Source: Shigella phage ESh27. Taken from it: DNA of 64,000 nucleotides. Positions 13,300 to 49,535 of the stretch are shown here, piece by piece. The stretch lies in sequence record ON528737; one strand, given 5' to 3'. Both the position numbers and the translations under genes were made by a program. The notes beneath the pieces were generated by a model, which worked only from the letters and a program-made list of their open reading frames with translations, was not told the origin of the DNA and searched no databases. Every line of letters starts with the position of its first letter. Position 1 is the stretch's first letter.

Positions 13300-13334
13300 G
13301 TTTACATAAGGATGATGATGTGTTACTATCATCC
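13300..13334 (+). promoter_or_regulatory. early promoter (GTTTAC -35, TACTAT -10) with inverted repeat GGATGAT/ATCATCC
   Basis: -35 at 13300-13305, -10 at 13324-13329, 18-nt spacer. Confidence 0.5.
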
Positions 13335-13363
13335 TATCAAATAAACAACCTCAAGGAAATAAA

Positions 13364-13675
13364 ATGAAAACCTATCAAGAATTCATCGCGGAAGCTACTA
13401 AAGCGGATAAAAATTTTGTTATTAACACTAATGGCCCATTAGATGATGAATACGCTAATGCTATTATTAAGTCAATTTCTAATCAAGGCGTTGAAGTAAC
13501 AAATTTCGAATATAAGAAAAATGATACTTATATGGTAATTAGTATCAAAAAAGGTTCAAAGGCCAAAATTAAATCTGCGTTTGGTGTTATGCGAGTTGAC
13601 CAAATTGATAATCATGATTTTTCACAAACTGGGGTTAAACGCCAGAACACTATTTCATCTAAAGGCATAAAATAG
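13364..13675 (+). CDS. internal-protein-like protein with capsid targeting sequence (IPI position)
   Basis: N-terminus MKTYQEFIAEA equals the T4 internal-protein CTS; 103 aa; adjacent to 57B as ipI is in T4. Confidence 0.7.
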   Translation: MKTYQEFIAEATKADKNFVINTNGPLDDEYANAIIKSISNQGVEVTNFEYKKNDTYMVISIKKGSKAKIKSAFGVMRVDQIDNHDFSQTGVKRQNTISSKGIK

Positions 13676-13711
13676 TTTACATCTTGGTAGGACTATGTTA
13701 TAGTAGTCCTA
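13675..13711 (+). promoter_or_regulatory. early promoter cassette with palindrome TAGGACTA-N8-TAGTCCTA over the -10
   Basis: GTTTAC 13675-13680, TATAGT 13699-13704; 37-bp element repeated at 33491-33527. Confidence 0.5.
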
Positions 13712-15504: not shown

Positions 15505-15576
15505 GGCCCTGTAGCTCAATGGGAGAGCTGTCAGCTCATAACTGATAGGTAGCTGGATCGAAACCAGCCAGGGTCA
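15505..15576 (+). tRNA. tRNA with CAT anticodon (Met, or AUA-reading Ile if lysidine-modified as in T4)
   Basis: Hand-folded cloverleaf: acceptor GGCCCTG/CAGGGTC, D stem GCTC/GAGC, anticodon loop CTCATAA, T stem GCTGG/CCAGC, then ACCA. Confidence 0.85.
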
Positions 15577-18347: not shown

Positions 18348-18575
18348 ATGGCTAAAGTTAGTATTGATGTCGTTGATTATGAATACACCGAAGAAGTTAT
18401 TCGCAACCGACACCCTGAAGTTCGTATCGATTCAGTCCAAGATTCCAAGTTCTGGACAACTGAGCTTAATCTGAGTGGTCCTTATGAAGCTGTTAAGAAG
18501 TTCATGGTTGAAGAATATTGCGAAGGCATGCACCCAGAAGACGCCAAGTTTTATGTCAATTTGATTAAAAAATAA
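18348..18575 (+). CDS. hypothetical protein
   Basis: 75-aa ORF after GAGGAGAAACAAA. Confidence 0.6.
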   Translation: MAKVSIDVVDYEYTEEVIRNRHPEVRIDSVQDSKFWTTELNLSGPYEAVKKFMVEEYCEGMHPEDAKFYVNLIKK

Positions 18576-18623
18576 TTTACAAACTCTTGAGAGCAGAGTA
18601 TAATGCTCTCGTTGGATAATAAA
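18575..18623 (+). promoter_or_regulatory. early promoter cassette (TATAAT -10 inside GAGAGCA/TGCTCTC palindrome), repeat copy A
   Basis: 41 bp 18583-18623 identical to 48207-48247. Confidence 0.5.
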
Positions 18624-21388: not shown

Positions 21389-21425
21389 GTTTACAACAAG
21401 ATAGGGCTATGTTATAGTAGTCCTA
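21389..21425 (+). promoter_or_regulatory. early promoter cassette (GTTTAC / TATAGT / TAGTCCTA arm)
   Basis: Same core as the 13675 cassette with one arm mismatch. Confidence 0.5.
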
Positions 21426-21446
21426 TCAAATTAAATGGAGTCCACA

Positions 21447-22680: not shown

Positions 22681-22717
22681 GTTTACACAATTATAGGACT
22701 ATGTTATAGTAGTCCTA
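22681..22717 (+). promoter_or_regulatory. early promoter cassette with perfect palindrome TAGGACTA-N8-TAGTCCTA
   Basis: GTTTAC 22681-22686, TATAGT 22705-22710. Confidence 0.5.
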
Positions 22718-22738
22718 TTAAAACATGAGGAGAATATT

Positions 22739-24456: not shown

Positions 24457-24904
24457 GAAAAATAAAGTGAAAGAGCTATCAGCCGGTATTATTTTCCTTA
24501 CCGAAGATAAAGAGTTATTCATGGGCCGTGTAACTGGTTCTCGTCCTAAAGGTTCTTTAGCTCATCGGTGGGATATTCCTAAAGGCCGTGTCGAACCCGG
24601 CGAATCTCCTATCGAAGCCGCTATTCGTGAATGCGAAGAAGAAACTGGGTTTACACAATATGACCCTGCCTTCCTGAAAGACCTAGGTGAACATCATTAC
24701 TCAGACAATAAGAATATTCATCTGTTCCTATATACCATCCCTGTAGAGCACGAGCAATTCAGAAACAGTGTTTGTAATTCCTATCATACATTCCCGGACG
24801 GACGACAGATTCCTGAATTTGATGCATTCGCTTTAATTAAACCTTCTCAATGGGAATATGTGATGGGCAAATCATTATATAAGGTGCTCACTACCATCCT
24901 ATAA
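24446..24904 (+). CDS. nudE: Nudix hydrolase NudE
   Basis: Nudix box GRVEPGESPIEAAIRECEEETG; 152 aa; adjacent to gene e. Confidence 0.85.
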   Translation: MMSKKNKVKELSAGIIFLTEDKELFMGRVTGSRPKGSLAHRWDIPKGRVEPGESPIEAAIRECEEETGFTQYDPAFLKDLGEHHYSDNKNIHLFLYTIPVEHEQFRNSVCNSYHTFPDGRQIPEFDAFALIKPSQWEYVMGKSLYKVLTTIL

Positions 24905-24910
24905 GTAATA

Positions 24911-24938
24911 AATACCTCCTATAAACGTGGGAGGTATT
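24911..24938 (+). promoter_or_regulatory. hairpin pairing the lysozyme SD with an upstream arm; late-promoter-like TATAAACG in the loop
   Basis: AATACCTCC (24911-19) / GGAGGTATT (24930-38) inverted repeat. Confidence 0.5.
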
Positions 24939-25427
24939 ATGAATATATTTGAAATGCTTCGTAATGACGAAGGTCTTAGACTGACTTTATACAAAGACAC
25001 CGAAGGCTTTTGGACGATTGGCATAGGCCATTTGGTAACAAAGGACCCGTCTTTAGCCGTAGCTAAAGCTGAACTTGATAGAATGATCGGTCGTAAATGC
25101 AACGGTACAATTACCCTTGATGAGGCTGAAAAGCTATTTAATGAAGATGTTGATAAAGCCGTTCGCGGAATCTTGGGTAATGCTAAACTTAAACCGGTAT
25201 ATGATTCTTTAGATGCAGTTCGTCGATGTGCATTGGTCAATATGGTCTTCCAAATGGGTGTAGCAGGCGTTGCTGGTTTTACTAATTCTCTTCGTATGCT
25301 TCAACAGAAACGTTGGGACGAAGCGGCAGTAAATCTAGCCCAATCTAAATGGTATCGTCAGACACCTAATCGCGCGAAACGCGTAATCTCAACATTTAAA
25401 ACAGGAACTTGGAAAGCGTATATATGA
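24939..25427 (+). CDS. e: endolysin (T4 lysozyme)
   Basis: MNIFEMLR...DEAEKLFN...[22 protein letters not shown] matches T4 lysozyme. Confidence 0.96.
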
Positions 25428-25705
25428 AAACATATAGTGAATTTTTATCAGAATCTATTCTTAACGAAGCTACTGACACATTTGCAACTAAGCTAGGTGC
25501 AGCTTTGGTTGAAGCTGAAAGTCTATTAGCACGTATTTCTGAACTTGCTAGTAAGATAGATACTCGCAAATTTGAGCGCACCAGTGATATCGTTAAGCTT
25601 GAAGCACTGTTGCGTATGTGCGATAAACCAGAAGAAATCGCTAAGAACGGCTCGCTGATGAAACAACGTCTTGAAAAATATATTTCAGGCGCTTCAGAAA
25701 AATAG
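25424..25705 (+). CDS. internal-protein-like protein with CTS
   Basis: N-terminus [11 protein letters not shown]; ATGA overlap with gene e stop. Confidence 0.7.
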
Positions 25706-25706
25706 T

Positions 25707-25760
25707 GTTTACTTCCTCCAAGGACTTTGATACTATACATTCATCAACTACTTGGAGGAA
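25707..25760 (+). promoter_or_regulatory. early promoter inside a 10-bp inverted repeat that includes the denV SD
   Basis: GTTTAC 25707-12, TACTAT 25731-36; arms TTCCTCCAAG (25714-23) / CTTGGAGGAA (25751-60). Confidence 0.55.
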
Positions 25761-25763
25761 ATT

Positions 25764-26177
25764 ATGACTCGTATCAATTTAACACTTGTTTCTGAACTGA
25801 CTGACCAACATCTTATGGCTGAGTATCGTGAATTACCACGCGTATTTGGTGCAGTCCGTAAACATGTTCAAAACGGTAAACGTGTAAAGGATTTTAAAAT
25901 CTCTCCGACATTTATCTTAGGCACGGGTCACGTAACATTCTTTTACGACAAACTCGAATTTTTACGTTTACGTCAAATCGAGCTAATCACTGAATGCTTG
26001 AAACGTGGTTTCAAAATCAAGGACACGACAGTCCAGGATATTTCCGACATCCCTGCCGAATTTCGTAATAATTATGTCCCGTCCGAAGCGTCCATTGCGA
26101 TAAGTCAAGCACGCTTAGATGAAAAAATTGCTCAACGTCCGACTTGGTACAAATACTATGGTAAATCAATTTACTAA
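25764..26177 (+). CDS. denV: endonuclease V (pyrimidine dimer DNA glycosylase)
   Basis: [34 protein letters not shown]... matches T4 DenV. Confidence 0.96.
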
Positions 26178-26183
26178 GGAAAA

Positions 26184-26444
26184 ATGAAAATGTATCAAGA
26201 ATTTATCACTGAAGCAGATGCCAAAGGTCCTAAATTTAAAGTTAAAGCTTTCATTGGTGATGCGGAAGACTTTGGCTCGTTAAAACGTAATGGGTATTCT
26301 TTCTTAGGTGGCGATGGTAAAGAAATCAACACCTATGCAAAACGTAGTGAAATTGCTTATGTTGTAGCAAGCCCTAAAGTAGATGCTGACGATATTGGAT
26401 ACGATTTTAACAACTTCGGAATTATTTCTGGCGGTAAAGCTTAA
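26184..26444 (+). CDS. internal-protein-like protein with CTS
   Basis: N-terminus MKMYQEFITEA; 86 aa. Confidence 0.65.
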   Translation: MKMYQEFITEADAKGPKFKVKAFIGDAEDFGSLKRNGYSFLGGDGKEINTYAKRSEIAYVVASPKVDADDIGYDFNNFGIISGGKA

Positions 26445-26446
26445 AT

Positions 26447-26478
26447 TGTTTACGCTTAAGTATTAATATGGTATAATT
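26447..26478 (+). promoter_or_regulatory. early promoter (GTTTAC / TATAAT)
   Basis: Followed by the CTATCAAAACAA leader motif. Confidence 0.45.
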
Positions 26479-26507
26479 ACTCTATCAAAACAAACAAGGA
26501 AACAAAA

Positions 26508-27086
26508 ATGAAAACATATAAAGAATTTATCGCCGAGGCCTTTGCAGGAAAAGTCCAAGGCATTAATAAGGACGAGTGGAATTATCGTGGCGGAAACGGC
26601 TTTGACCCTAAAACTGCTCCTATTGAACGGTACTTAGCTACAAAGGCTTCCGACTTTAAAGCCTTCGCTTGGGAAGGACTTCGCTGGCGTAACGATCTAA
26701 ATATTGAAGTTGATGGTCTTAAATTTGCTCATATTGAAGATGTTGTTGCTAGTAACTTAGACGCAGCTTTTGTTAAAGCCGACAGTGACCTTCGTCGCTG
26801 GAATTTAAAACTGTTCTCTAAACAAAAAGGCCCGAAGTTTGTGCCTAAAGCAGGTAAATGGGTCATTGATAATAAATTGGCTAAAGCTGTCAACTACGCT
26901 GGTCTTGAATTTGCCAAGCATAAATCATCATGGAAAGGTCTTGACGCAATGGCTTTCCGTAAAGAATTTGCCGATGTTATGGCTAAAGGCGGCTTTAAGG
27001 CAGAAATAGATACCTCTAAAGGTACGTTTAAAGACGCTAATGTTCAGTACGCTTACGCCGTTGCTAATGCAGCCCGTGGTAATTAA
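26508..27086 (+). CDS. internal-protein-like protein with CTS (IPIII-sized)
   Basis: N-terminus MKTYKEFIAEA; 192 aa. Confidence 0.7.
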   Translation: MKTYKEFIAEAFAGKVQGINKDEWNYRGGNGFDPKTAPIERYLATKASDFKAFAWEGLRWRNDLNIEVDGLKFAHIEDVVASNLDAAFVKADSDLRRWNLKLFSKQKGPKFVPKAGKWVIDNKLAKAVNYAGLEFAKHKSSWKGLDAMAFRKEFADVMAKGGFKAEIDTSKGTFKDANVQYAYAVANAARGN

Positions 27087-27088
27087 TA

Positions 27089-27110
27089 AGGCCTATACTT
27101 AGGCCTATTT
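27089..27110 (+). terminator. terminator-like hairpin
   Basis: AGGCCT-ATACTT-AGGCCT then ATTT, directly after the stop codon. Confidence 0.4.
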
Positions 27111-27264
27111 ACATTCAACTAAAATGGGAACAACCTGGACCTCATTATTCTATGAGGGATTCCCGCCAACCTGTAATAAGGTCGAGCCCAAGTGCGGTAA
27201 TGGGTAAATACAGAAACGGACAAGTCATGCGCCATGGAATGGCCCAAACCTTAAGAGAAATAAT

Positions 27265-27804
27265 ATGAGAACATTTTTAACTGGACCTTATCTATCCCTG
27301 ATGAATGCTTTTACACACCATTCTGATGCTAGAGTAGAAGAAATTTGTAAGAACGGTTATACCCCACCATTTGAAGATGTACTCAAGCAGTACTGTACAC
27401 TTCGTTTAGACGGCGGCAGACAATCAGGTAAATCAATTGCTGTGACTAACTTTGCTGCTAATTGGCTGTATGATGGTGGAACAGTTATTGTTCTTTCTAA
27501 TACTTCAGCTTATGCTAAAATTTCTGCTGGCAACATTGAAAAAGAATTTTCGCGTTATTCTAGCGACGATATTCGATTCCGTTTATTTACTGATTCTGTT
27601 CGTAGTTTTATTGGCAATGAAGGTTCTAAATTCCGTGGATTAACGCTTTCTCGTATTCTGTATATAATTGACGAGCCTATTAAAGCTCCTGATATGGATA
27701 AGATTTACAATGTCCATATTAAAACAGTCCAACACTGCTGTAAAAGCAAATATTGCAACGGCGGTATTGCTCGTCCTCAATTTTTTGTGATTGGAATGCA
27801 ATGA
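27265..27804 (+). CDS. small P-loop NTPase
   Basis: Walker A GGRQSGKS and Walker B ILYIIDE. Confidence 0.6.
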   Translation: MRTFLTGPYLSLMNAFTHHSDARVEEICKNGYTPPFEDVLKQYCTLRLDGGRQSGKSIAVTNFAANWLYDGGTVIVLSNTSAYAKISAGNIEKEFSRYSSDDIRFRLFTDSVRSFIGNEGSKFRGLTLSRILYIIDEPIKAPDMDKIYNVHIKTVQHCCKSKYCNGGIARPQFFVIGMQ

Positions 27805-28109
27805 TGACCACTATTGAAGTTTTTGAGTATTGTTATAACAGCCCAGTATGCAATAAAAGGGCTCTTGTAGAAAATTACGAGATTTACCATTTTAAACCTA
27901 AACGATATCGTTTGACTAAAGGTCCGTTCGCAGGGCAGCAGGTTCTTTGTACTGCTCCTAATGCACGGTTGATGACTAGTATTCCACATTTCAAAATGGA
28001 ATTTATTGATGGGCCATTTAAGGGATTAATCACTCAAAGTTTAATGGCGTTTAATTCCGACCCATTTTTGATTAAAGAAAAAACTTGGATAAATTTATTT
28101 TCTAATTGA
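27801..28109 (+). CDS. hypothetical protein
   Basis: ATGA overlap with upstream gene. Confidence 0.5.
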   Translation: MMTTIEVFEYCYNSPVCNKRALVENYEIYHFKPKRYRLTKGPFAGQQVLCTAPNARLMTSIPHFKMEFIDGPFKGLITQSLMAFNSDPFLIKEKTWINLFSN

Positions 28110-28115
28110 GGTTAT

Positions 28116-28478
28116 ATGAAAGCATATCAAATTCTTGAAGGTGCACATAAAGGCACTATTTATTTTGAAGACGGTACTCAAGCCCGGATTATTGTCTCTA
28201 AGACTTTTAAAGAAGACGCTATTGTAGACTCAGAAATTTTCTACGGTTTGAATGCCCGTGAAATTGAAATTGAACATCAACCTAAAGTTAAAATTGAAGG
28301 TGGTCAACACCTGAACGTTAACGTTCTGCGTCGTGAAACTCTGGAAGATGCAGTTAAGCATCCGGAAAAATATCCGCAGCTGACCATCCGTGTATCCGGT
28401 TATGCAGTTCGCTTTAACTCTCTGACTCCGGAACAGCAGCGCGACGTTATCGCTCGTACCTTTACTGAGAGTCTATAA
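28116..28478 (+). CDS. autonomous glycyl radical cofactor (GrcA/YfiD-like)
   Basis: C-terminus ...[60 protein letters not shown] with the RVSGY glycyl radical motif. Confidence 0.85.
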
Positions 28479-28702
28479 TGGCTAAATTGATTATAGAAGG
28501 GTCTGAAGATGTTTTAAAATGTTTTGCCGCCTGGTTTAGTTGCTCAGGCGAGCAATCATTCATTGAAGCATTTAGAATGGGTGATATTACTGGAAACTAT
28601 CCGACAACTGATATCACTGTACGTGGATACGGTATTAATGAGCCTATCCAATTGGTCGAATATGACCTTGCCACCGATGAGGAAATTCCTTATGTCGATT
28701 GA
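28478..28702 (+). CDS. hypothetical protein
   Basis: 74-aa ORF; overlapping alternative-frame ORF 28524-28958 not preferred. Confidence 0.45.
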   Translation: MAKLIIEGSEDVLKCFAAWFSCSGEQSFIEAFRMGDITGNYPTTDITVRGYGINEPIQLVEYDLATDEEIPYVD

Positions 28703-28958
28703 AGACATCAAAGGCTACAAGCCGCATACCGATGATAAAATTGGTAAAGTGAACGCTATTAAAGATGCTGAAGTCCGTCTTGGATTGTTGTTTGATGCTC
28801 TGATTGAAGAAGCATATATCTTGAAAGAAAATGAAACAGAGCAACAAACCAAAGAAGATATGGATGCAGTGCAGGCTCTTAAGTATGCTAAGCAACATCT
28901 AAAAGAAGCCAGCATGTGGGCATGCCGCGCAGTATTTCGACCTGAGGAAAAATACTAA
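28692..28958 (+). CDS. hypothetical protein
   Basis: ATG at 28692 overlaps upstream stop. Confidence 0.45.
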   Translation: MSIEDIKGYKPHTDDKIGKVNAIKDAEVRLGLLFDALIEEAYILKENETEQQTKEDMDAVQALKYAKQHLKEASMWACRAVFRPEEKY

Positions 28959-29173
28959 TGGCTTCTACTATTACTGGGTTATTGGACTTCCAGGAAAAGG
29001 TCAACAAAATTTGTAGTGAATACTTAAAGTATCTTGAAGAAGACCTTGAAGATTGTAAAGAAGAAGGCGAAGAAGACTATGCTGACCAGCGTCGTCGCCA
29101 AATCGAAGAGATGAGGCATTTCGCCGATATGGTATCTAAAGAATCTTGGGCTTTAACTCCATTTTATCAATAA
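28958..29173 (+). CDS. hypothetical acidic protein
   Basis: 71-aa ORF. Confidence 0.5.
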   Translation: MASTITGLLDFQEKVNKICSEYLKYLEEDLEDCKEEGEEDYADQRRRQIEEMRHFADMVSKESWALTPFYQ

Positions 29174-29177
29174 AGTA

Positions 29178-29228
29178 GTTTACTTCTCCTCTAGTTGTGT
29201 TACTATAGACCTGTCAACTAGAGGAGAA
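29178..29228 (+). promoter_or_regulatory. early promoter inside a perfect 14-bp inverted repeat that includes the regB SD
   Basis: GTTTAC 29178-83, TACTAT 29201-06; arms TTCTCCTCTAGTTG (29184-97) / CAACTAGAGGAGAA (29215-28). Confidence 0.55.
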
Positions 29229-29234
29229 ATCAAA

Positions 29235-29693
29235 ATGACTATCAATTCGGAAGTTTTTATCCGCCGTAATAAACTCCGTCGAATCTTTGAAACGGAGTTC
29301 CGCAAAATAAATGCCGGTATAAAAGATGCTGCAAAGTCTCTTGGACTACCAGGCTTTCATATCAAGTATTCTCAACATCTCTTAGATCGTGCCATCCAGA
29401 GAGAAATAGATGAGAATTACGTTTTTGAATTATTTCGTAAAGTAAAAAATCACGTTAAAGAAGTTGCAGAATTTTTATCAATGCCGGCACGTCCAGATGT
29501 TGATGAAGATTTTGTCGAAGGTGTCGAATATCGCCCAGGCCGTTTAGAAATAACTGATGGAAATCTTTGGTTAGGCCTTACAGTTTGTCGCGAAAATCCG
29601 GCATTCAAAATGAAGACTCTTCAATGTAGAATGGCTATTATTAACAGTAAACGACTACCAGGAAAAGCTTCTAAAGCAGTGATTAAAATCTAG
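29235..29693 (+). CDS. regB: RegB site-specific endoribonuclease
   Basis: MTINSEVFIRRNKLRR...LDRAIQREIDE...RMAIINSKRLPGKASKAVIK matches T4 RegB. Confidence 0.92.
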   Translation: MTINSEVFIRRNKLRRIFETEFRKINAGIKDAAKSLGLPGFHIKYSQHLLDRAIQREIDENYVFELFRKVKNHVKEVAEFLSMPARPDVDEDFVEGVEYRPGRLEITDGNLWLGLTVCRENPAFKMKTLQCRMAIINSKRLPGKASKAVIKI

Positions 29694-29701
29694 AGGTAAA
29701 C

Positions 29702-30244
29702 ATGAGAAAAGCACTACTCGCTGGTCTATTTGCTCTTTCGTTATCAGCACATAGCTCCGAGCATACTTTTAGTAATGTCCAACTCGATAACTTGAATTAT
29801 GCTTATCAGTTTGGGGAACAGTTTTCTAAGGACGGAAAATTTAAAACGCATGAAAATATGCATAAGAAAGGACTTGGATACATAATGGCCGCAATACTAT
29901 GGCAGGAATCATCTGCCGGTGTTAATCTTAAAGATAAGAAAGGTCACCATGCGTATGGAATGTTCCAAAACTATCTACCAACAATGAGGGCAAGAATTAA
30001 CCAGCTTGGTTATAATATGACTGATGCCCAAATTAAGAAAATGCTATCTAAGCGGTCTAATTCAGCCAGATGGGCTTATATCGAATTTTCTTATTGGTTA
30101 AATATACATAACGGGGATATAAGAAAAGCTATATCCTCATATAATGCGGGATGGAAGACAAGTGCTGGAAGTAAATATGCTTCTGAAGTCCTAGAAAAGG
30201 CTAATTACCTTAAATCAAATAAACTACTGGAAGTAAAAGAATGA
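29702..30244 (+). CDS. secreted lytic-transglycosylase-like (SLT domain) protein
   Basis: Signal peptide MRKALLAGLFALSLSAHS; QESS and SYNAG motifs. Confidence 0.65.
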   Translation: MRKALLAGLFALSLSAHSSEHTFSNVQLDNLNYAYQFGEQFSKDGKFKTHENMHKKGLGYIMAAILWQESSAGVNLKDKKGHHAYGMFQNYLPTMRARINQLGYNMTDAQIKKMLSKRSNSARWAYIEFSYWLNIHNGDIRKAISSYNAGWKTSAGSKYASEVLEKANYLKSNKLLEVKE

Positions 30245-30588
30245 CCAAAATGTTGGCTTTAATAGTTGGCTTGGTTTCATTTAACGCTCTTGCTAATACT
30301 ACATATACTGATGTAACGGAGTATATAAACAGAACGGCGTCTGATTATTGTGGTAAAAGTCAAGAGTGTAAAGTAGATTTTTCACAAAAATTGTTATACG
30401 CATATAAAGACGGAGAAAAAGATGGGGCGTCTAGTAGGTTCAAGGCGTCTACCTTAATTAAACGATATCATAAAAAATGGCAAATATTAGAATGCTCGGT
30501 GGCGGAACCTAAAGATAAGGCAGCATGCAATTCTATGGTGGACCGTCTAGTTGACTCTTATACTAGAGGACTTGCAGCAAGTGATTAA
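30241..30588 (+). CDS. secreted cysteine-containing small protein
   Basis: Signal peptide MTKMLALIVGLVSFNALA; 115 aa. Confidence 0.55.
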   Translation: MTKMLALIVGLVSFNALANTTYTDVTEYINRTASDYCGKSQECKVDFSQKLLYAYKDGEKDGASSRFKASTLIKRYHKKWQILECSVAEPKDKAACNSMVDRLVDSYTRGLAASD

Positions 30589-31045
30589 AAACTATATCAA
30601 GGGCGATATTGTCGCCCTGTTTTCTAAAGGTAATAATATTGCTCATGGGTGTAATTGTTTTCATACAATGGGCGCAGGTGTAGCAGGACAATTAGCAAAG
30701 GCGTATCCAAAAATTCTGGAAGCTGATAAACTTCAAACTGTATATGGAGATGAGTCTAAACTCGGATCTTATTCAGTTTATGAAAAATATTTTAAGACCC
30801 ATAAAGCTTATTGCTTTAATCTTTATACACAGTTTGAGCCGGGACCTAATTTTGAGTACTCTGCTTTAATGAATTGTATAATAGAATTAAATGAATTCGG
30901 AAAAAATAAGATAACAAAGCCTGTAATTTATATGCCAAGAATTGGTGCAGGTATTGGTGGCGGAAACTGGGATGTCATCGAAGAGATTTTAGATACGTAT
31001 TCCACTAAACTAGAAATTGTGATTGTTGATTGGGAACCTAAATGA
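30581..31045 (+). CDS. macro-domain-like protein (putative ADP-ribose binding or processing)
   Basis: GDIV...NIAHGCNC...MGAGVAG and ...PRIGAGIGGG pattern; GTG start at 30581 after AGAGGA. Confidence 0.55.
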   Translation: MIKNYIKGDIVALFSKGNNIAHGCNCFHTMGAGVAGQLAKAYPKILEADKLQTVYGDESKLGSYSVYEKYFKTHKAYCFNLYTQFEPGPNFEYSALMNCIIELNEFGKNKITKPVIYMPRIGAGIGGGNWDVIEEILDTYSTKLEIVIVDWEPK

Positions 31046-31224
31046 AATTGACTAAAGAAGAGAAAGCTAAACTGTTCGAACTTATCCATGACCTATTGGA
31101 TGAGCAAGCAGCCACTAATGCGTATGATGAATATGCTCCTTTAACAGATGAAGAATATCAAACATTGTTGGAATCATTTGACAGGAAAGAACAAGAACTC
31201 ATTGACTATGTGAATTCACTATAA
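31042..31224 (+). CDS. hypothetical acidic protein
   Basis: 60-aa ORF. Confidence 0.45.
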   Translation: MKLTKEEKAKLFELIHDLLDEQAATNAYDEYAPLTDEEYQTLLESFDRKEQELIDYVNSL

Positions 31225-31233
31225 GGGACTCTT

Positions 31234-31815
31234 ATGGCTAGTTTAATTTTTACCTATGCCGCTATGAACGCCGGTAAGTCTGCTTCATTACTTACCGCCG
31301 CACATAACTATAAAGAACGTGGCATGGGTGTATTAGTTCTTAAACCGGATATTGATACTCGTGATTCAAAAGGTGAAATAGTCTCTCGTATTGGTATTCG
31401 TCAGGATGCCAATATAATTACAAAAGACATGGATATCTTTGAATTCTATAAATGGGCTGCAGCACAAAAGGATATTCACTGTGTATTTGTTGATGAAGCT
31501 CAGTTCTTAACTACTGAAAAGGTGTATCAGCTTAGTCGTATTGTTGACGTATACAATGTGCCGGTAATGGCATACGGACTACGAACAGATTTTAAAGGTA
31601 ATCTATTTGAAGGTTCTCAAGCATTAATGGCTATTGCCGATAAGCTTGTTGAACTTAAAGGTGTCTGTCATTGTGGTAAAAAGGCCACTATGGTAGCTAG
31701 AGTCACGGAAGATGGACTTCCAATTACAGACGGTGGACAAATTGAAATTGGTGATACTGATAGATATGTGTCATTATGCCGGAAGCATTGGAATGATTTG
31801 ACAGGGTTGTTATAA
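31234..31815 (+). CDS. tk: thymidine kinase
   Basis: P-loop AAMNAGKSASLL, VDEAQF, C-terminal zinc ribbon CHCGKKA...LCRKHW; 193 aa. Confidence 0.92.
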   Translation: MASLIFTYAAMNAGKSASLLTAAHNYKERGMGVLVLKPDIDTRDSKGEIVSRIGIRQDANIITKDMDIFEFYKWAAAQKDIHCVFVDEAQFLTTEKVYQLSRIVDVYNVPVMAYGLRTDFKGNLFEGSQALMAIADKLVELKGVCHCGKKATMVARVTEDGLPITDGGQIEIGDTDRYVSLCRKHWNDLTGLL

Positions 31816-31842
31816 ATACTAATATCTAACCAAGAGGTATAT

Positions 31843-32055
31843 ATGCAGCAATTAAACGAAAGACAACTTCGTAATCTTACTGTAACCCAATTGGATGAAA
31901 TCCGAAGAGAATTAGGACATTCTATTTCTCATTTAAACGAGGATATCCGTCAAACTGGTTCTAAAGCTGATTATACACGCAAGCGCAAGCTGGAAAAATA
32001 CCTCGCAGATGTTAAGGCCGTTCAAAGGCGAAAAATAAATACTGGCCAAAATTAA
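31843..32055 (+). CDS. hypothetical basic protein
   Basis: 70-aa ORF between tk and rI. Confidence 0.5.
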
Positions 32056-32067
32056 CAGGAGGCCTAT

Positions 32068-32370
32068 ATGGCCTTAAGAGCGATAGCCATTGTGGCGATG
32101 CTGGGGTTTTTTGCAGCAACGACTCCTATTGTTGGTACTGCATATGTTGACCCGTACTTTGATAACTTTATGGAATCAGGGATTAAAAACGTATATACTT
32201 TGTTCGAAATTCAAAATGTTGAGAATTCTGAAAAATTTTATAAGTATATGGCAAAGCATTACAAAAATAGCCCCTGTGATGATGCATTTGAATGCCAGGA
32301 ACAAGGCATAAAAACTGCCAGACAATTTGCCGAGTTCATGAAAATAAAATTAGAGCCTACATCTATCTAA
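32068..32370 (+). CDS. rI: lysis inhibition regulator RI
   Basis: Signal anchor MALRAIAIVAMLGFF..., VDPYFDNFMESGI..., ~100 aa, resembles T4 RI. Confidence 0.82.
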   Translation: MALRAIAIVAMLGFFAATTPIVGTAYVDPYFDNFMESGIKNVYTLFEIQNVENSEKFYKYMAKHYKNSPCDDAFECQEQGIKTARQFAEFMKIKLEPTSI

Positions 32371-32377
32371 TTTACTA

Positions 32378-32404
32378 GCCCCTTCCGAAAGGTTGGGGCT
32401 TTTT
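32378..32404 (+). terminator. rho-independent terminator (repeat copy 2)
   Basis: Same GCCCCTTCCGAAAGGTTGGGGC-T5 element. Confidence 0.6.
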
Positions 32405-32437
32405 GTATAAATATCCTTGTAAACTAAGAGAGGATAT

Positions 32438-32995
32438 ATGAAATTTTTAAAATATGTAAGTTGGGTTGTTCTTGTTCCTATAGATTGGATCGCAGCGATT
32501 TTGGCAATTATTCTAGCACCATTTGTAGTTCCATTCCATAGTGAAAAAACCGGTAAACTACCTTATGGCTTTAACTGGATGATGACTTACGATAATCCTA
32601 TCGATGGTGACCGTGGCCATGTTGAACGTTGGTCTAAAATACGTAAAATTCCTGTTATAGGTAAATATGCTCAACGCGTAGCTTGGCTATGGCGAAACAA
32701 AGCATATAATTTTTCGTATCATGTTTTAGGGCGTGAAGCTTCATCAGAATGGCACTATAAAGGCAACACCGAAACTAAATCTGGTTCTCCTGACCCAGCA
32801 CATCATGGATACCTTTTAGTTTGGAATGAGTCTGCATGGGGATTATTCGCTGCTATACCTTATCTTAAGGTCGGCGGTATTACATTTTATCTGCGCGTTT
32901 ACTGTGGTTGGAAACTTAAGAGTCTTTTGAGTCGTCCTATTCCACGCGCAATGCTTTCATTCCATATCAACCCTTTACGATATTACAAAAACTAA
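32438..32995 (+). CDS. membrane-anchored hypothetical protein
   Basis: N-terminal hydrophobic helix; 185 aa. Confidence 0.6.
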   Translation: MKFLKYVSWVVLVPIDWIAAILAIILAPFVVPFHSEKTGKLPYGFNWMMTYDNPIDGDRGHVERWSKIRKIPVIGKYAQRVAWLWRNKAYNFSYHVLGREASSEWHYKGNTETKSGSPDPAHHGYLLVWNESAWGLFAAIPYLKVGGITFYLRVYCGWKLKSLLSRPIPRAMLSFHINPLRYYKN

Positions 32996-33000
32996 TCAAA

Positions 33001-33028
33001 GCCCCTTCCGAAAGGTTGGGGCTTTTTT
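33001..33028 (+). terminator. rho-independent terminator (repeat copy 3)
   Basis: Same GCCCCTTCCGAAAGGTTGGGGC element, T6. Confidence 0.6.
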
Positions 33029-33038
33029 GTATCTATCA

Positions 33039-33090
33039 GTTTACTTCTCCTCAGGTTGTGTTATAGTAGACCTTACTTACTAGAGGAGAA
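33039..33090 (+). promoter_or_regulatory. early promoter with TTCTCCTC / GAGGAGAA inverted repeat spanning the SD
   Basis: GTTTAC 33039-44, TATAGT 33062-67. Confidence 0.55.
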
Positions 33091-33094
33091 CGTT

Positions 33095-33274
33095 ATGTCA
33101 CGTAAAGAAAAAATTTCTAAGTTAATGTTTTTGATTGAAGAGTACGCTAACGCTGTATCTGATTGGGAAAATGCCCATGGGTGTGAAGACGGTGATATCG
33201 ATATCAATAAGGCAATGAAAAAGATGGCCGACTCCCACACCGAATTGCAAATGTATGTTAACGAGATTATGTGA
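33095..33274 (+). CDS. hypothetical protein
   Basis: GAGGAGAA then ATG at 33095. Confidence 0.55.
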   Translation: MSRKEKISKLMFLIEEYANAVSDWENAHGCEDGDIDINKAMKKMADSHTELQMYVNEIM

Positions 33275-33281
33275 GGATATT

Positions 33282-33491
33282 ATGCTTTACGATTATACTG
33301 GAAAATCTGAAGACGGCGTACTTGAACTTTTACCTGAAAGCGCTGAAGATGATGATATGACGACGGTGATGTTTTGTAAAAATGGCCCTGGGGATAAGGG
33401 ATGGATTTATCTTCGTCAAGAAAATGACCTAATTGTTTTGGACCCTAAACAAGTTGAAGAGCTTTATCAACATTTAAAACACAATCGGTAG
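33282..33491 (+). CDS. hypothetical acidic protein
   Basis: GAGG then ATG at 33282. Confidence 0.55.
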   Translation: MLYDYTGKSEDGVLELLPESAEDDDMTTVMFCKNGPGDKGWIYLRQENDLIVLDPKQVEELYQHLKHNR

Positions 33492-33527
33492 TTTACATCT
33501 TGGTAGGACTATGTTATAGTAGTCCTA
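33491..33527 (+). promoter_or_regulatory. early promoter cassette, 37-bp repeat of 13675-13711
   Basis: Identical gtttacatcttggtaggactatgttatagtagtccta. Confidence 0.5.
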
Positions 33528-33548
33528 CTAAAACAAACGGAGAACAAA

Positions 33549-37638: not shown

Positions 37639-37672
37639 GTTTACAAGGTCTATGGTTATGTTATTATAGACC
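37639..37672 (+). promoter_or_regulatory. early promoter with GGTCTAT/ATAGACC inverted repeat
   Basis: GTTTAC 37639-44, TATTAT 37662-67. Confidence 0.5.
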
Positions 37673-37694
37673 TATCAACTACTGGAGGTAAAAC

Positions 37695-38222
37695 ATGAAC
37701 GCTAAAGATATTTTCAACCTGGTAAATTATAACGACGGTAAATTTAAATCTGAAGCACAAAGCAAGTTCTTTAATGACGTTGCTTATGGTAACGAGATTA
37801 CCGTGGACGGAGGTCAGATTTTCAAATCTCGCTGGAATTGGATTGTTATCATCGATTCGATTGGAATTGTGGAAGTCTACAAAAACACTAACAAAAAACG
37901 TACATTATTCTGGTCTCGTGAAACTAACGAGCAGTACAAAAAGGATAAAGCATCTCGTTTATCCAAAGTAACCAAGGAAGATATCGAGTTTATCAAGAAA
38001 GATATCGAGATGTACGAAAATTTAATCGCTGAAGACCAGGCAGTACTCGATAAGTTTGATGAAATTAAAGCTTCTCGTGAAATCCCTGACTTCATGAAAG
38101 AAACAGTAAACGAACGATACGCTCTCACTTCAGAACGTATTGCAAACTATACAAAACAGAAATCAGAACGTATTAGTACTCTTCGGAAATTTGAAGAACG
38201 TTTAAAGACGGTTCACGCATAA
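37695..38222 (+). CDS. hypothetical protein
   Basis: 175-aa ORF after CTGGAGG. Confidence 0.6.
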   Translation: MNAKDIFNLVNYNDGKFKSEAQSKFFNDVAYGNEITVDGGQIFKSRWNWIVIIDSIGIVEVYKNTNKKRTLFWSRETNEQYKKDKASRLSKVTKEDIEFIKKDIEMYENLIAEDQAVLDKFDEIKASREIPDFMKETVNERYALTSERIANYTKQKSERISTLRKFEERLKTVHA

Positions 38223-42928: not shown

Positions 42929-42967
42929 ATTATAAATACCCTTATCTATTTAAGGTAAGGGTTTATC

Positions 42968-43441
42968 ATGTTATTATCAGGCGCAAAATATAAAGAAGAA
43001 AAACAAAAATTTTATGATGCACAGAACGGTAAGTGTCCTATTTGCCGCCGTGAATTAGACTCTGATGTTCAAGGTAACCATCTTGACCACGACCATGAAT
43101 TAAACGGGCCAAAAGCCGGTAGAGTTCGTGGATTACTCTGTAATCTGTGCAACGCAGCAGAAGGTCAAATGAAGCATAAGTTCAACCGTTCCGGTTTGAA
43201 AGGTCAAAACGTTGATTACTTAGAATGGCTTGAAGCTCTTCTTGCTTATTTGAAACAAGATTATTCTGATAATAATATCCATCCTAATTTTGTTCCGGAT
43301 AAAACTAAAGAGTTCTCAAGACTAGGTAAAGAGGAAATGATGACCGAGATGCTTCAAAGAGGATTTGAATATAATGAATCTGATACTAAAACACAATTAA
43401 TAGCTTCATTCAAAAAGCAGCTTAGAAAGAGTTTAAAATGA
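42968..43441 (+). CDS. 49: endonuclease VII (Holliday junction resolvase)
   Basis: 157 aa; ...CPICRREL...HLDHDHELNGPKAGRVRGLLCNLCNAAEG... matches T4 gp49. Confidence 0.92.
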   Translation: MLLSGAKYKEEKQKFYDAQNGKCPICRRELDSDVQGNHLDHDHELNGPKAGRVRGLLCNLCNAAEGQMKHKFNRSGLKGQNVDYLEWLEALLAYLKQDYSDNNIHPNFVPDKTKEFSRLGKEEMMTEMLQRGFEYNESDTKTQLIASFKKQLRKSLK

Positions 43442-48822: not shown

Positions 48823-48911
48823 AACTATCTCGAATTGCTATAACCGAAGAAAAGTTTGGTGAATTTTAAGTCGTCAACTTTATGAAAGTTACGTATCTTT
48901 GATAGTATCTC

Positions 48912-48957
48912 GTGCTTTAAGATAGGTCTCTAAATATTATGATATAATAGACCTATG
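48912..48957 (+). promoter_or_regulatory. candidate promoter with ATAGGTCT/AGACCTAT inverted repeat upstream of gene 55
   Basis: TATAAT at 48944-49; -35 assignment uncertain. Confidence 0.35.
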
Positions 48958-48977
48958 AATTGAGCCAAGAGGTACTT

Positions 48978-49535
48978 ATGACTGAACAAAAACCTAAAAA
49001 TAACTATGTGAATAATAAAGAGCTTCTCGCTGCTATAATCGAGTGGAAAAAGGAGCTCTTAAATAATAAAGACCCAAACAAAATTATTCGTCAGAATGAT
49101 ACCATAGGTTTAGCAATTATGCTTATCGCCGAAGGCCTGTCCAAACGTTTCAACTTTTCAGGATATACCCAGTCTTGGAAGCAGGAGATGATTGCAGATG
49201 GGATTGAAGCCTCTATTAAGGGACTTCATAATTTCGACGAAACTAAGTACAATAACCCACATGCATACATAACTCGAGCTTGTTTTAATGCTTTTGTCCA
49301 ACGTATCAAAAAAGAACGTAAGGAAGTTGCAAAGAAATATAGTTACTTCGTTCATAATGTCTACGACAGTCATGACGATGATATGGTAGCGTTGGTAGAT
49401 GAAACGTTTATTCAAGACATCTACGATAAAATGACGCATTATGAAGAATCCGCTTATAAAGCTCCTGGGGCTGAAAAGAAGGAAGTTGTTAGCGATTCGC
49501 CTAGTTTGGATTTTTTATATGAGGATGACAATTGA
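48978..49535 (+). CDS. 55: late-transcription sigma factor gp55
   Basis: 185 aa from [17 protein letters not shown]...; ...[24 protein letters not shown]... matches T4 gp55. Confidence 0.92.

Follow-up and report, generated by a model that had tools for sequence, protein, structure and literature searches.

Four predicted hairpins at gene starts in the ESh27 window

The window analysed is a 64,000-nucleotide stretch of Shigella phage ESh27 (ON528737), a Mosigvirus (RB69/PhAPEC2-like T-even phage). At four genes in it, e (encoding an endolysin), denV (endonuclease V), regB (the RegB endoribonuclease) and ORF33095 (a 59 aa product related to the protein at the mobD.2a position of Tequatrovirus PhiZZ30), the Shine-Dalgarno (SD) sequence lies within the 3' arm of an inverted repeat, 3-6 nt 5' of the ATG. 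All four repeats described in the initial annotation are present in the sequence, the coordinates of the denV 5' arm being corrected by one base (25713-22, not 25714-23). The gene 5' of denV encodes an internal head protein, as in T4, and the gene preceding that one is e. The features at the four sites are as follows.

24900-24907, + strand: imperfect late box TATAAGTA, compared with the consensus TATAAATA
24907-24914, + strand: late-promoter-like box AATAAATA, matching TATAAATA at 7/8 positions and overlapping the first bases of the e 5' arm
24911-24922, + strand: e hairpin, 5' arm (core AATACCTCC, 24911-19); MFE -16.3 kcal/mol, z -4.74
24920-24927, + strand: imperfect late box TATAAACG, compared with the same consensus
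24927-24938, + strand: e hairpin, 3' arm with SD GGAGG (core GGAGGTATT, 24930-38); ATG at 24939
25707-25736, + strand: denV early promoter, GTTTAC (25707-12), 18-nt spacer, TGA-TACTAT (-10 at 25731-36)
25713-25722, + strand: denV 5' arm TTCCTCCAAG, inside the promoter spacer
25751-25760, + strand: denV 3' arm CTTGGAGGAA with SD; ATG at 25764
29178-29206, + strand: regB early promoter, GTTTAC (29178-83), 17-nt spacer, TGT-TACTAT (-10 at 29201-06)
29184-29197, + strand: regB 5' arm TTCTCCTCTAGTTG, inside the promoter spacer
29215-29228, + strand: regB 3' arm CAACTAGAGGAGAA with SD GAGGAG; ATG at 29235
33000-33029, + strand: terminator-like hairpin AGCCCCTTCC-GAAA-GGTTGGGGCT, then TTTTTT, just 5' of the ORF33095 promoter
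33039-33067, + strand: ORF33095 early promoter, GTTTAC (33039-44), 17-nt spacer, TGT-TATAGT (-10 at 33062-67)
33045-33052, + strand: ORF33095 5' arm TTCTCCTC, a weak site (p 0.05, z -0.36)
33083-33090, + strand: ORF33095 3' arm GAGGAGAA with SD; ATG at 33095

The arms form perfect helices of 14 bp at regB and 10 bp at denV, and an 8 bp helix with a 30-nt loop at ORF33095. At e, a perfect 9 bp core lengthens to 12 bp (24911-22 / 24927-38) if two G.U pairs are counted, closing an AAAC loop. When the window was searched with the curated Rfam covariance models, the sole match was a tRNA (15505-15576), and no family matched at the four hairpin sites.

The promoters at denV, regB and ORF33095 are of the T4 early type GTTTAC-N17/18-TGnTAnnnT, a pattern with 21 matches in the window (3.0 expected), 19 of them on the + strand; the denV promoter is also present in T4 and relatives. 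The 5' arm at each of these genes lies inside the -35/-10 spacer. The initial description of a promoter in the loop was imprecise here, as the -35 GTTTAC stands directly 5' of the arm and the arm takes up the spacer's first half; the loop contains only the TGn/-10 element and the predicted start. From the promoter consensus and the -10 geometry, transcription is predicted to start near 25743 (denV), 29213 (regB) and 33074 (ORF33095), and the predicted starts lie 8-21 nt past the 5' arms.

The e site carries late-promoter-like boxes that match the consensus at 6-7 of 8 positions. None of the three boxes at e in the window is an exact TATAAATA, whereas the corresponding places in T4 hold two exact TATAAATA boxes; the ESh27 boxes are presumably used. 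A hypothetical start near 24915 would leave 8 bp of the hairpin, with an opening cost of 11.2 kcal/mol. The T4 arms are AATACCTTC/GGAGGTATT, as against AATACCTCC/GGAGGTATT in the window, with a G.U pair in T4 where the window has C-G, and the window site is the ortholog of the T4 element. The e hairpin is not new, being the T4 lysozyme case, which has been published and already extended to T4 relatives (PMC3014915).

Folding of long and short transcripts

Fold z-scores were calculated against 200 dinucleotide shuffles per site. The values were -4.74 for e, -3.42 for denV and -3.75 for regB, with 0/200 shuffles folding as well in each case, and these three sites are therefore clearly non-random. 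Shuffling of the promoter segment gave p values of about 3e-4 for regB, 0.005 for denV and 0.05 for ORF33095, and the 12 other early promoters in the window were non-significant by this measure.

The predicted cost of opening the SD was far higher on RNA read through from upstream than on RNA started at the proximal promoter: 15.8 versus 4.2 kcal/mol for e, 10.7 versus 2.5 for denV, 16.5 versus 1.7 for regB and 8.9 versus 1.0 for ORF33095. Among 117 gene starts (median 3.5, 90th percentile 6.9 kcal/mol), the long transcripts ranked first (regB), second (e), sixth (denV) and ninth (ORF33095). The claim that read-through RNA conceals the SD and proximal-promoter RNA leaves it free thus held in folding for e, denV and regB (10.7-16.5 long versus 1.7-4.2 kcal/mol short), where compensation between the denV and regB arms, described below, also speaks for it; it lacked statistical support at ORF33095 (z -0.36).

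The ORF33095 hairpin is not distinguishable from chance on its own, since 68/200 shuffles fold equally well. Its cassette is ~79% identical to that of regB (own count on the alignment) with the inner stem decayed, and the site appears to be a degraded copy of it. In a comparison of four Mosigvirus sequences, substitutions map to the loop and the flanks, with 0 in the 16 arm bases; these are the only relatives found, and the lack of arm variation among them leaves no covariation to score. The invariant arms and the likeness to the regB cassette mean that the site may be an inherited remnant. The 8-bp complementarity here could well be a by-product with no regulatory role, either a remnant of a copied regB-like cassette or a chance meeting of the pyrimidine-rich start of the spacer with the purine-rich SD. 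The shuffle results, the 30-nt loop, the decayed inner stem and invariant arms all fit this, as does the terminator directly upstream, which may let little read-through reach the gene; the difference in opening cost, the rank of 9/117 and the sparing of all 16 arm bases count against it. The stem of the terminator-like hairpin has a 2x2 internal mismatch, and the hairpin is absent from the list of the consensus terminator scan. A second copy lies near 32377.

Pairing across T4-like phages and competing explanations

The regB arms differ between lineages and still pair: TTCTCCTCTAGTTG/CAACTAGAGGAGAA in the window, TTTTCCTCTTGACTG/CAGTTAAGAGGAGAA with 2 G.U in T4, TTTCTCCTCTTTATG/CATAAAGAGGAGAAA in L011 and TCTCCTGTAAGT/ACTTACAGGAGA in L014. 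The denV 5' arm likewise varies (TTCCTCCAAG, TCTCCTGTAG, ATCTCCGTTTG, TCTCCTGTG), and in a second denV design the 5' arm has shifted onto the -10/+1 segment but continues to precede the start site (e.g. GATGTCTTCC/GGAGGACATC, TAGTGTTCTC/GAGAACACTA). In structural alignments whose register on the helix was set by hand, both partners had changed in 6 pairs at regB (covariation 0.310 versus 0.140 shuffled, 0/500) and in 8 at denV (0.420 versus 0.138, 0/500), and slid controls reached 0.163 at most. Cognate 5' and 3' partners had a mean helix score of 8.25, compared with 5.77 ± 0.37 for permuted partners (p ≤ 2e-4). Across 12 denV lineages, opening cost 8.6-20.2 kcal/mol on long and 0.8-4.2 on short RNA. 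Pairing was weak or absent in a few lineages, for regB in L015 (8.3 versus 6.3) and L018. The G.U versus A.C asymmetry was 3 versus 1-2 when counted symmetrically; a clear excess would prove a constraint at the RNA level. These sequence comparisons show that pairing at denV and regB has been maintained by evolution across divergent phages.

The sites resemble PeSL cassettes ('promoter-early stem-loop', Arbiol et al. 2010; Comeau et al. 2014), defined by an AT-rich region, a sigma-70-like promoter, a stem-loop often between -35 and -10 or over the -10, an SD and an ATG (PMC2839356; PMC4122927). As such they might attenuate or terminate upstream transcription and supply short homologies for modular recombination, with the pairing to the SD incidental. 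The three early sites have this layout, including a strong early promoter overlapped by the stem-loop; at many other early promoters in the window there are inverted repeats off the SD, and the regB and ORF33095 cassettes are closely similar. PeSLs are associated with hyperplastic early regions and with insertion, deletion and replacement junctions, an association also found here: the upstream genes differ between L011 and L012, where the junction falls within the spacer, and the ORF32438 cassette of the window is missing from L099-L101, with the junction at the terminator. We nevertheless consider this account improbable. No U-tract follows the 3' arms of denV, regB or ORF33095, their loops span 17-30 nt, and the terminator scan lists none of these hairpins. 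The regB and denV helices, with loops of 17-28 nt followed by A-rich sequence, would therefore be poor intrinsic terminators. Recombination homology needs no complementarity between arms, yet the arms covary, with the SD region invariably forming the 3' arm. The second denV design relocates the 5' arm and keeps it just 5' of the start site, which is sensible only if the start site matters. The roles assigned to PeSL stem-loops have been termination or attenuation and recombination, and the PeSL papers never mention translation or SD pairing (PMC2839356; PMC4122927); the words 'translation' and 'ribosome' appear 0 times in PMC2839356.

A role in protecting RNA was also weighed, in which the helix mainly shields the GGAG/SD of read-through RNA from RegB and from RNase E/G entry, stabilising long polycistronic RNA for downstream genes with translational silencing as a side effect. 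GGAG within early SD sequences is cleaved by RegB, an activity that RNA secondary structure inhibits, GGAG within stable structures being resistant in vivo (PMC1702504); the SD of regB itself is a target (PMC3014915), and each of the three early sites has GGAG within the sequence that is masked. To this we give little credence as the main role. The T4 denV SD is already RegB-resistant owing to its 3' context (PMC1702504), yet masking at denV is the best conserved, and the same hairpin architecture is found on the late-promoter genes e, gene 49 and ORF32438. A buried SD would block the 30S subunit regardless, so that protection overlaps with translational silencing and excludes nothing.

Translational coupling, by which ribosomes ending the upstream gene would melt the hairpin and make downstream translation proportional instead of silenced, appears very unlikely. 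The distance from the upstream stop to the 5' arm is short, 7 nt at denV, 10 nt at regB and 6 nt at e. However, the helicase reach of a ribosome with the stop codon in the A site extends only ~5 nt beyond it. The second denV design puts the 5' arm more than 30 nt from the stop, and the ORF33095 arm is 49 nt from the stop, behind the terminator. At T4 e the distance is equally short, yet long transcripts are still translated ~100-fold less (PMC3014915).

Proposed SD sequestration at early promoters

Taking the arms, promoter consensus, predicted folds and kept pairing together with the presumed transcription starts, abundance of read-through and effect on translation, we infer that the hairpins probably act as promoter-of-origin switches for translation. 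At denV, regB and, weakly, ORF33095, the anti-SD would belong to the gene's own sigma-70 early promoter and lie where that promoter is not transcribed, within the -35/-10 spacer in the window and within the -10 to +1 segment in some other phages. RNA reading through from early, middle or late promoters upstream would carry both arms, whose pairing over 10-14 bp would bury the SD and keep 30S subunits from binding; late transcripts of e, for example, would read through into denV. RNA from the proximal promoter would start ~2-8 nt before the 3' arm, lacking the 5' arm and leaving the SD free in a leader of 20-24 nt. Early promoters of T4 are shut off after 2-3 min, and denV and regB would be translated essentially only while their own early promoters fire.

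The T4 lysozyme hairpin was described by McPheeters et al. 1986 and is reviewed with the soc, 49 and I-TevI cases by Uzan & Miller 2010; this architecture cuts synthesis 100-fold on long transcripts (PMC3014915). The window sites share with it the SD in the 3' arm and have a proximal promoter whose RNA is predicted to lack the 5' arm, the long T4 e RNA being silent, and the gene 49 homolog in the window also bears its known hairpin. At e, the same device with late promoters would give late-only translation, the published T4 mechanism. The published cases have gp55-dependent late promoters and late genes (PMC2988022), which among the four sites is true of e only. The promoters of denV, regB and ORF33095 are sigma-70 early and not late, and the temporal logic is therefore inverted, with early-only instead of late-only translation predicted. 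The initial proposal that the T4 lysozyme mechanism operates at three further genes is supported in silico for denV and regB in its hairpin part, at early instead of late promoters, and is unsupported for ORF33095.

The hairpins at the ribosome binding sites (RBS) of homing endonucleases (I-TevI/II/III, segB, Aeh1 mobE; Edgell et al. 2010, PMC2988022) are alike in having a promoter in or beside the 5' arm and the RBS in the 3' arm; they differ in having late (or middle) promoters with delayed expression, none with an early promoter. Reviews report RBS sequestration for late genes only (PMC2988022). The early-promoter version of SD sequestration would be new; the gene e case is already published.

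At regB, autoregulation by RegB (Uzan & Miller 2010; Durand et al. 2006) and the hairpin both act on the GGAG SD and would both restrict RegB synthesis to the opening minutes of infection; in T4 proteomics the protein appears early (PMC9697503). Autoregulation works in trans and requires an accessible GGAG, whereas the hairpin would work in cis, set by the origin of the transcript. Since secondary structure inhibits RegB, pairing should shield the GGAG of long regB RNA from it, and the proximal transcript would remain open to autoregulation.

In T4 (0-77 kb), a helix score of at least 9 was found at 4 of 25 early promoters against 0.25 expected (0/400 shuffles). The genes with this design are denV, regB, nrdC.8 and modB, and their opening costs show the same long/short pattern. 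The SD is masked at ~15-20% of early promoters, and the design is hence not universal. We tentatively suggest, with somewhat more doubt than belief, that T-even phages have a general 'translational insulator' grammar in which an anti-SD is placed in the untranscribed part of the promoter, at about one in six early promoters. Its members may include denV, regB, nrdC.8, modB and motB.2 in T4, and denV, regB and perhaps ORF33095, ORF46828 and ORF17654 in the window. If so, each such gene would be translated from its own promoter's RNA only, despite read-through from tandem upstream promoters, and synthesis of some early proteins would end in cis at promoter shut-off, independently of mRNA decay. 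Such a grammar would account for some of what PeSL stem-loops do and contribute to the mismatch in RNA and protein timing in T4 omics data. Masking is not conserved at nrdC.8, whose SD is masked in T4; in the window ortholog a repeat surrounds the -10 instead.

Inverted repeats and promoters at four genes

The 24-34 kb region of the window was 96-97% identical to the Mosigvirus genomes AV114, PHB12, ChristianSchoenbein, PhAPEC2 and phiE142, and its gene order was collinear with T4 nudE-e-...-denV-...-regB-vs-tk-rI. PHROG matches identified the ORFs at 24939, 25764 and 29235 as endolysin (gene e), endonuclease V (denV) and RegB endoribonuclease (regB), and the ORF at 25409-25705, directly 5' of denV, as an internal head protein. 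The initial annotation had placed inverted repeats with the Shine-Dalgarno sequence (SD) as 3' arm at these three genes and at ORF33095, which encodes a 59-aa protein. All four were found in the sequence, with the 5' arm at denV shifted by one base (25713-22, not 25714-23). The SD lies inside the 3' arm at 4/4 sites, and the ATG follows 3-6 nt further on.

Inverted repeats at the four genes, in window coordinates
Gene e, ATG 24939: 5' arm AATACCTCC 24911-19; 3' arm GGAGGTATT 24930-38; 12-bp stem with an AAAC loop once folded as RNA
denV, ATG 25764: 5' arm TTCCTCCAAG 25713-22; 3' arm CTTGGAGGAA 25751-60
regB, ATG 29235: perfect 14 bp, 29184-97 / 29215-28
ORF33095, ATG 33095: 5' arm TTCTCCTC 33045-52; 3' arm GAGGAGAA 33083-90

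A cruciform or protein-binding palindrome was rejected on the long loops (17-30 nt), on arm sequences that vary between promoters and on a 3' arm that is invariably the sense-strand SD. An intrinsic terminator was rejected on the missing U-tract after the arms. An Rfam search of the window returned no family matching the hairpins.

A generic sigma-70 scan of the window was uninformative (27 sites versus 29 expected, with the denV and regB promoters missed), and a T4-type early promoter pattern was therefore used (GTTTAC, 17-18 nt, TGn-TAnnnT). It matched 21 times versus 3.0 expected, a number reached in 0/100 shuffles, and 19/21 matches were on the coding strand. The T4 GenBank and RefSeq records have no promoter features annotated. 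The predicted start was taken as the 7th base past the -10, at about 25743 for denV, 29213 for regB and 33074 for ORF33095. At denV, regB and ORF33095 the 5' arm starts right at the end of the -35 hexamer and occupies the first half of the spacer, and the loop contains the -10 and the predicted start. The promoter had been described as lying in the loop, which holds at these three early sites for the -10 and predicted start and fails for the -35 and the spacer-borne arm. Since 8 nt or more separate the end of the 5' arm from the -10 at the early sites, shifting the start by one or two bases makes no difference there. Gene e has imperfect candidate late boxes (AATAAATA 24907-14, TATAAGTA 24900-07 and TATAAACG 24920-27), whereas T4 gene e has two exact TATAAATA late boxes at equivalent positions.

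Folding of read-through and promoter-proximal RNA

RNA folding gave z = -4.74 for the e hairpin, -3.42 for denV and -3.75 for regB, and in each case 0/200 dinucleotide shuffles folded equally well. The ORF33095 segment gave z = -0.36, with 68/200 shuffles equally good. When only the promoter segment was shuffled, p was ~3e-4 (regB), 0.005 (denV) and 0.05 (ORF33095); none of 12 other early promoters tested was significant. Of the four sites, three (e, denV and regB) bear the observation out.

SD opening cost was defined as the free energy to open positions -13 to -5 in a 100-nt leader. Over 117 approximate gene starts it had a median of 3.5 and a 90th percentile of 6.9 kcal/mol, and regB ranked 1st, e 2nd, denV 6th and ORF33095 9th. 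The cost was 8.9-16.5 kcal/mol on read-through (long) RNA versus 1.0-4.2 on promoter-proximal (short) RNA.

SD opening cost at the four genes, read-through versus promoter-proximal RNA (kcal/mol)
Gene e: 15.8 versus 4.2 (start 24921) or 11.2 (start 24915)
denV: 10.7 versus 2.5
regB: 16.5 versus 1.7
ORF33095: 8.9 versus 1.0

The hairpins probably act as promoter-of-origin switches for translation: RNA initiated upstream would have both arms and bury the SD, and RNA from the gene's own promoter, without the 5' arm, would be translatable. As put forward in the initial annotation, with three further genes beyond lysozyme, this mechanism appears essentially right at e, denV and regB from folding, and at denV and regB also from covariation; the case for ORF33095 is weak. 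There, the arm complementarity may be due to chance or inheritance. The statistics are weak (z = -0.36; p = 0.05), the site is immediately preceded by a terminator, its few relatives have invariant arms, and the cassette is ~79% identical to the regB cassette (our own count in a MAFFT alignment), with the inner stem decayed. Its relatives are near-identical (3 close ones in IMG/VR and 158 GenBank phage records, almost all with ≥90% identity), and the distant homolog in PhiZZ30 overlaps the upstream gene and is without a promoter; informative arm variation was absent from this set. We put the odds that the ORF33095 site is functional at roughly even.

Conservation and covariation of the regB and denV arms

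The regB and denV loci of IMG/VR viral contigs were compared, together with T4 itself. In four regB sequence lineages the early-promoter spacer pairs with the SD region via a long helix, and these lineages differ in the sequence of the non-SD stem half.

Arms at regB in four lineages (L-numbers are IMG/VR contig loci, apart from the T4 locus L104)
Window: TTCTCCTCTAGTTG/CAACTAGAGGAGAA
T4: TTTTCCTCTTGACTG/CAGTTAAGAGGAGAA, two G.U
L011: TTTCTCCTCTTTATG/CATAAAGAGGAGAAA
L014: TCTCCTGTAAGT/ACTTACAGGAGA

Only a nested version was found in L015, where a short TTCCTT/AAGGAG outer helix surrounds a helix that encloses the -10; the leader of L018 (RegB 40% identical) had no obvious arm pairing. At denV two designs were seen. 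Design A has the 5' arm in the spacer (TTCCTCCAAG, TCTCCTGTAG, ATCTCCGTTTG, TCTCCTGTG), and in design B it spans the final bases of the -10 and the 6-7 that follow (e.g. TAGTGTTCTC/GAGAACACTA, GATGTCTTCC/GGAGGACATC, ATGTCCTCC/GGAGGACAT). In both, the 5' arm lies directly upstream of the expected start site, a position required by the transcript-origin model and unpredicted by other models. Translational coupling via a nearby upstream stop codon is an unlikely rival: T4 e is repressed despite the same geometry, and the arms of denV design B and ORF33095 are far from any stop codon.

Since MAFFT alignments of promoter-to-ATG segments put the arms out of register, arm alignments were registered by hand. 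These bias the percentage paired, and weight was placed on changes on both sides, slid controls and permutation of cognate and non-cognate arms. At regB, 6 pairs had changed on both sides and covariation was 0.310 versus 0.140 ± 0.035 in shuffled alignments (0/500), with slid controls at most 0.104. For denV design A the values were 8 pairs and 0.420 versus 0.138 ± 0.034 (0/500), with slid controls at most 0.163. Among 14 representatives of at most 80% similarity, the mean helix score was 8.25 for cognate 5'/3' partners versus 5.77 ± 0.37 for permuted ones (p ≤ 2e-4), a test that controls for the pairing of a pyrimidine-rich promoter consensus with any purine-rich SD. G.U versus A.C mismatches, ascertained symmetrically as a measure of RNA-level versus DNA-level constraint, numbered 3 versus 1-2, a difference too small to be decisive. 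All 12 denV lineages folded had opening costs of 8.6-20.2 kcal/mol on long versus 0.8-4.2 on short RNA, even where no long helix had been noticed. We regard this comparative sequence evidence as decisive for the predicted SD masking.

The early sites match the layout of the promoter-early stem-loop (PeSL) cassettes of T4-type phages, whose stem-loop has been read as a terminator and recombination site, with translation and the SD unmentioned (Arbiol et al. 2010; Comeau et al. 2014). Recombination junctions do fall within cassettes (L011/L012; window versus the ORF33095 relatives L099-L101), but the helices combine long loops with the lack of a U-tract, and arms need not covary with each other for recombination. 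Protection of the SD region from RegB or another RNase may plausibly come on top of masking at regB; against it as the general explanation, the T4 denV SD owes RegB resistance to its sequence already, yet denV is the best-conserved case.

The L011 and L012 regB leaders (bases 500-600) are identical from the -10 on and follow different upstream genes. The junction is inside the promoter spacer, and the L012 stem has two G.A mismatches; recombination within the cassette has likely damaged the SD mask in part. At denV of L041, L043, L046 and L049, from jumbo phages of c. 350 kb, the -35 TTGACT is part of a terminator hairpin, GGGTTGACTTCGGTCAGCCC, with a T-run behind it (bases 530-600). These four loci showed no SD pairing, and their promoters are the terminator-overlapping-promoter form of PeSL.

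Predicted timing and the extent of SD masking

The e hairpin is already known, in relatives of T4 included. In T4 lysozyme, long transcripts are ~100-fold less productive, and the genes listed under such control are e, soc, 49 and I-TevI (Uzan & Miller 2010, PMC3014915); genes regulated by sequestration of the ribosome-binding site have all been stated to be late genes (Edgell et al. 2010). Targeted full-text searches returned no description of SD masking at early genes, and an earlier remark on dyad symmetries is possible in older papers. The device at denV and regB is that of T4 lysozyme, here coupled to sigma-70 early promoters whose spacer contains the anti-SD. The sequences themselves show the structure and that evolution has maintained it, and we infer where transcription starts, how much read-through RNA there is and how translation responds.

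At e, late-only synthesis would result, as in the published T4 mechanism. Because the proximal promoters of denV and regB are early, and T4 early promoters are off within 2-3 minutes (PMC3014915), the opposite outcome, early-only synthesis, is predicted there, even with middle and late read-through continuing; e and the internal-head-protein gene, 5' of denV, are expected to be late-transcribed. The presence of RegB among early proteins in T4 proteomics (PMC9697503) is consistent with this but not decisive. RegB is inhibited by RNA structure (PMC1702504), and the paired GGAG on long regB RNA should also resist it; the short transcript would remain open to the known autoregulatory cut. In the window the regB SD (29223-29233) is followed by AAAUCAA; position 9 of the RegB/S1 recognition consensus GGAGRAYARAA is therefore a C, where the close relatives L003-L005 have A. 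Efficiently cut T4 RegB sites never have C there (Durand et al. 2006), and to judge by this base, RegB may cut its own SD less strongly in this strain.

In T4 (0-77 kb), 4/25 GTTTAC promoters with a downstream gene, those of regB, nrdC.8, denV and modB, scored 9 or more for the promoter/SD helix (expected 0.25), and 0/400 shuffles reached four. SD masking is thus a minority design among early promoters, neither window-specific nor universal.

SD opening cost at T4 genes, long versus short RNA (kcal/mol)
regB: 16.1 versus 2.8
denV: 11.3 versus 3.0
nrdC.8: 16.6 versus 3.3
modB: 14.9 versus 1.8
motB.2: 10.4 versus 0.9 (helix 8 bp, score 7.5)

What deserves further work is the early-promoter version at denV and regB, which is conserved, covaries and is also present at T4 nrdC.8 and modB. 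Timed gene expression is classically taught on T4 and, to our knowledge, its shut-off of early protein synthesis has been explained only in part so far. If correct, the proposed switch would add a cis-encoded layer of early shut-off that needs no trans-acting factor and is the mirror image of the hairpins at late genes. Some early-promoter-cassette stem-loops would also gain a function, having been discussed till now only as terminators or recombination sites. Transcript abundance would say little about how strongly masked genes are expressed, which affects the reading of phage RNA-seq, and a gene moved without its promoter spacer could be unmasked or silenced, which affects phage engineering. 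The prediction is directly testable in T4 by a few point mutations.

The nrdC.8 orthologs of the window (37639-37697) and T4 (L104 3885-3950, minus strand) share 83% amino-acid identity and differ in stem-loop type: the T4 SD is masked by GTTCCTCTGTGGT/ACTACGGAGGAAC, and in the window the SD is free and a repeat (AGGTCTAT/ATAGACCT) encloses the -10 instead. Weaker candidates of the early-promoter type are ORF46828 (46770-46830), with a TCCTC/GAGGA outer helix around two nested -10-enclosing helices (8.5 kcal/mol), and ORF17654 (17583-17656), with a TGTTCTTC/GGAGAATG pairing that includes three G.U and a cassette that recurs at T4 e.8 and imm.1.

Late promoters are involved at two further genes. 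ORF32438 (ATG 32438; 185 aa, phrog_2143) is a further e-type site (32406-32440), at which an exact TATAAATA (32406-13) overlaps the 5' arm (ATATCCTT 32411-18) and the 3' arm (GAGGATAT 32430-37) holds the SD; its opening cost on long RNA was 6.8 kcal/mol. This cassette is flanked by two copies of a terminator-like hairpin (AGCCCCTTCCGAAAGGTTGGGGCTTTTT; c. 32377-32405 and 33000-33029). ORF32438 is absent from L099-L101, where the first flank runs straight into the ORF33095 promoter, which looks like insertion or deletion by recombination between the flanking repeats. The homolog of gene 49 (endonuclease VII) has TATAAATA at 42931-38 and a hairpin (ACCCTTATCT/AGGTAAGGGT, 42938-47 / 42953-62) that buries the SD (11.8 kcal/mol, 3rd of 117); this element (42931-42970) corresponds to the late-promoter hairpin known from gene 49 of T4.

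At gene 55 (late sigma factor; ATG 48978) predicted folding pairs the SD AAGAGGTAC with GTATCTC near 48906, enclosing a nested TAGGTCTC/TAGACCTA helix, and a MotA-box-like TGCTTTA lies between the arms (48900-48980). The opening cost was 11.5 kcal/mol (4th of 117), and the same masking logic may operate here with a middle promoter.

Inverted repeats flanking the -10 were seen in many other early promoters, e.g. TAGGACT-ATGTTATAGT-AGTCCTA (13300-13335, 13675-13711, 18575-18610, 21389-21427, 22681-22718, 33491-33531 and 37639-37673). Both arms are upstream of the predicted start and leave the SD untouched, with downstream opening costs below 5.2 kcal/mol; these repeats correspond to the PeSL stem-loops of the literature. 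The cassettes at 13675-13711 and 33491-33527 share an identical 37-nt sequence (GTTTACATCTTGGTAGGACTATGTTATAGTAGTCCTA) at a distance of ~20 kb and are potential substrates for PeSL-type recombination as described by Arbiol et al.
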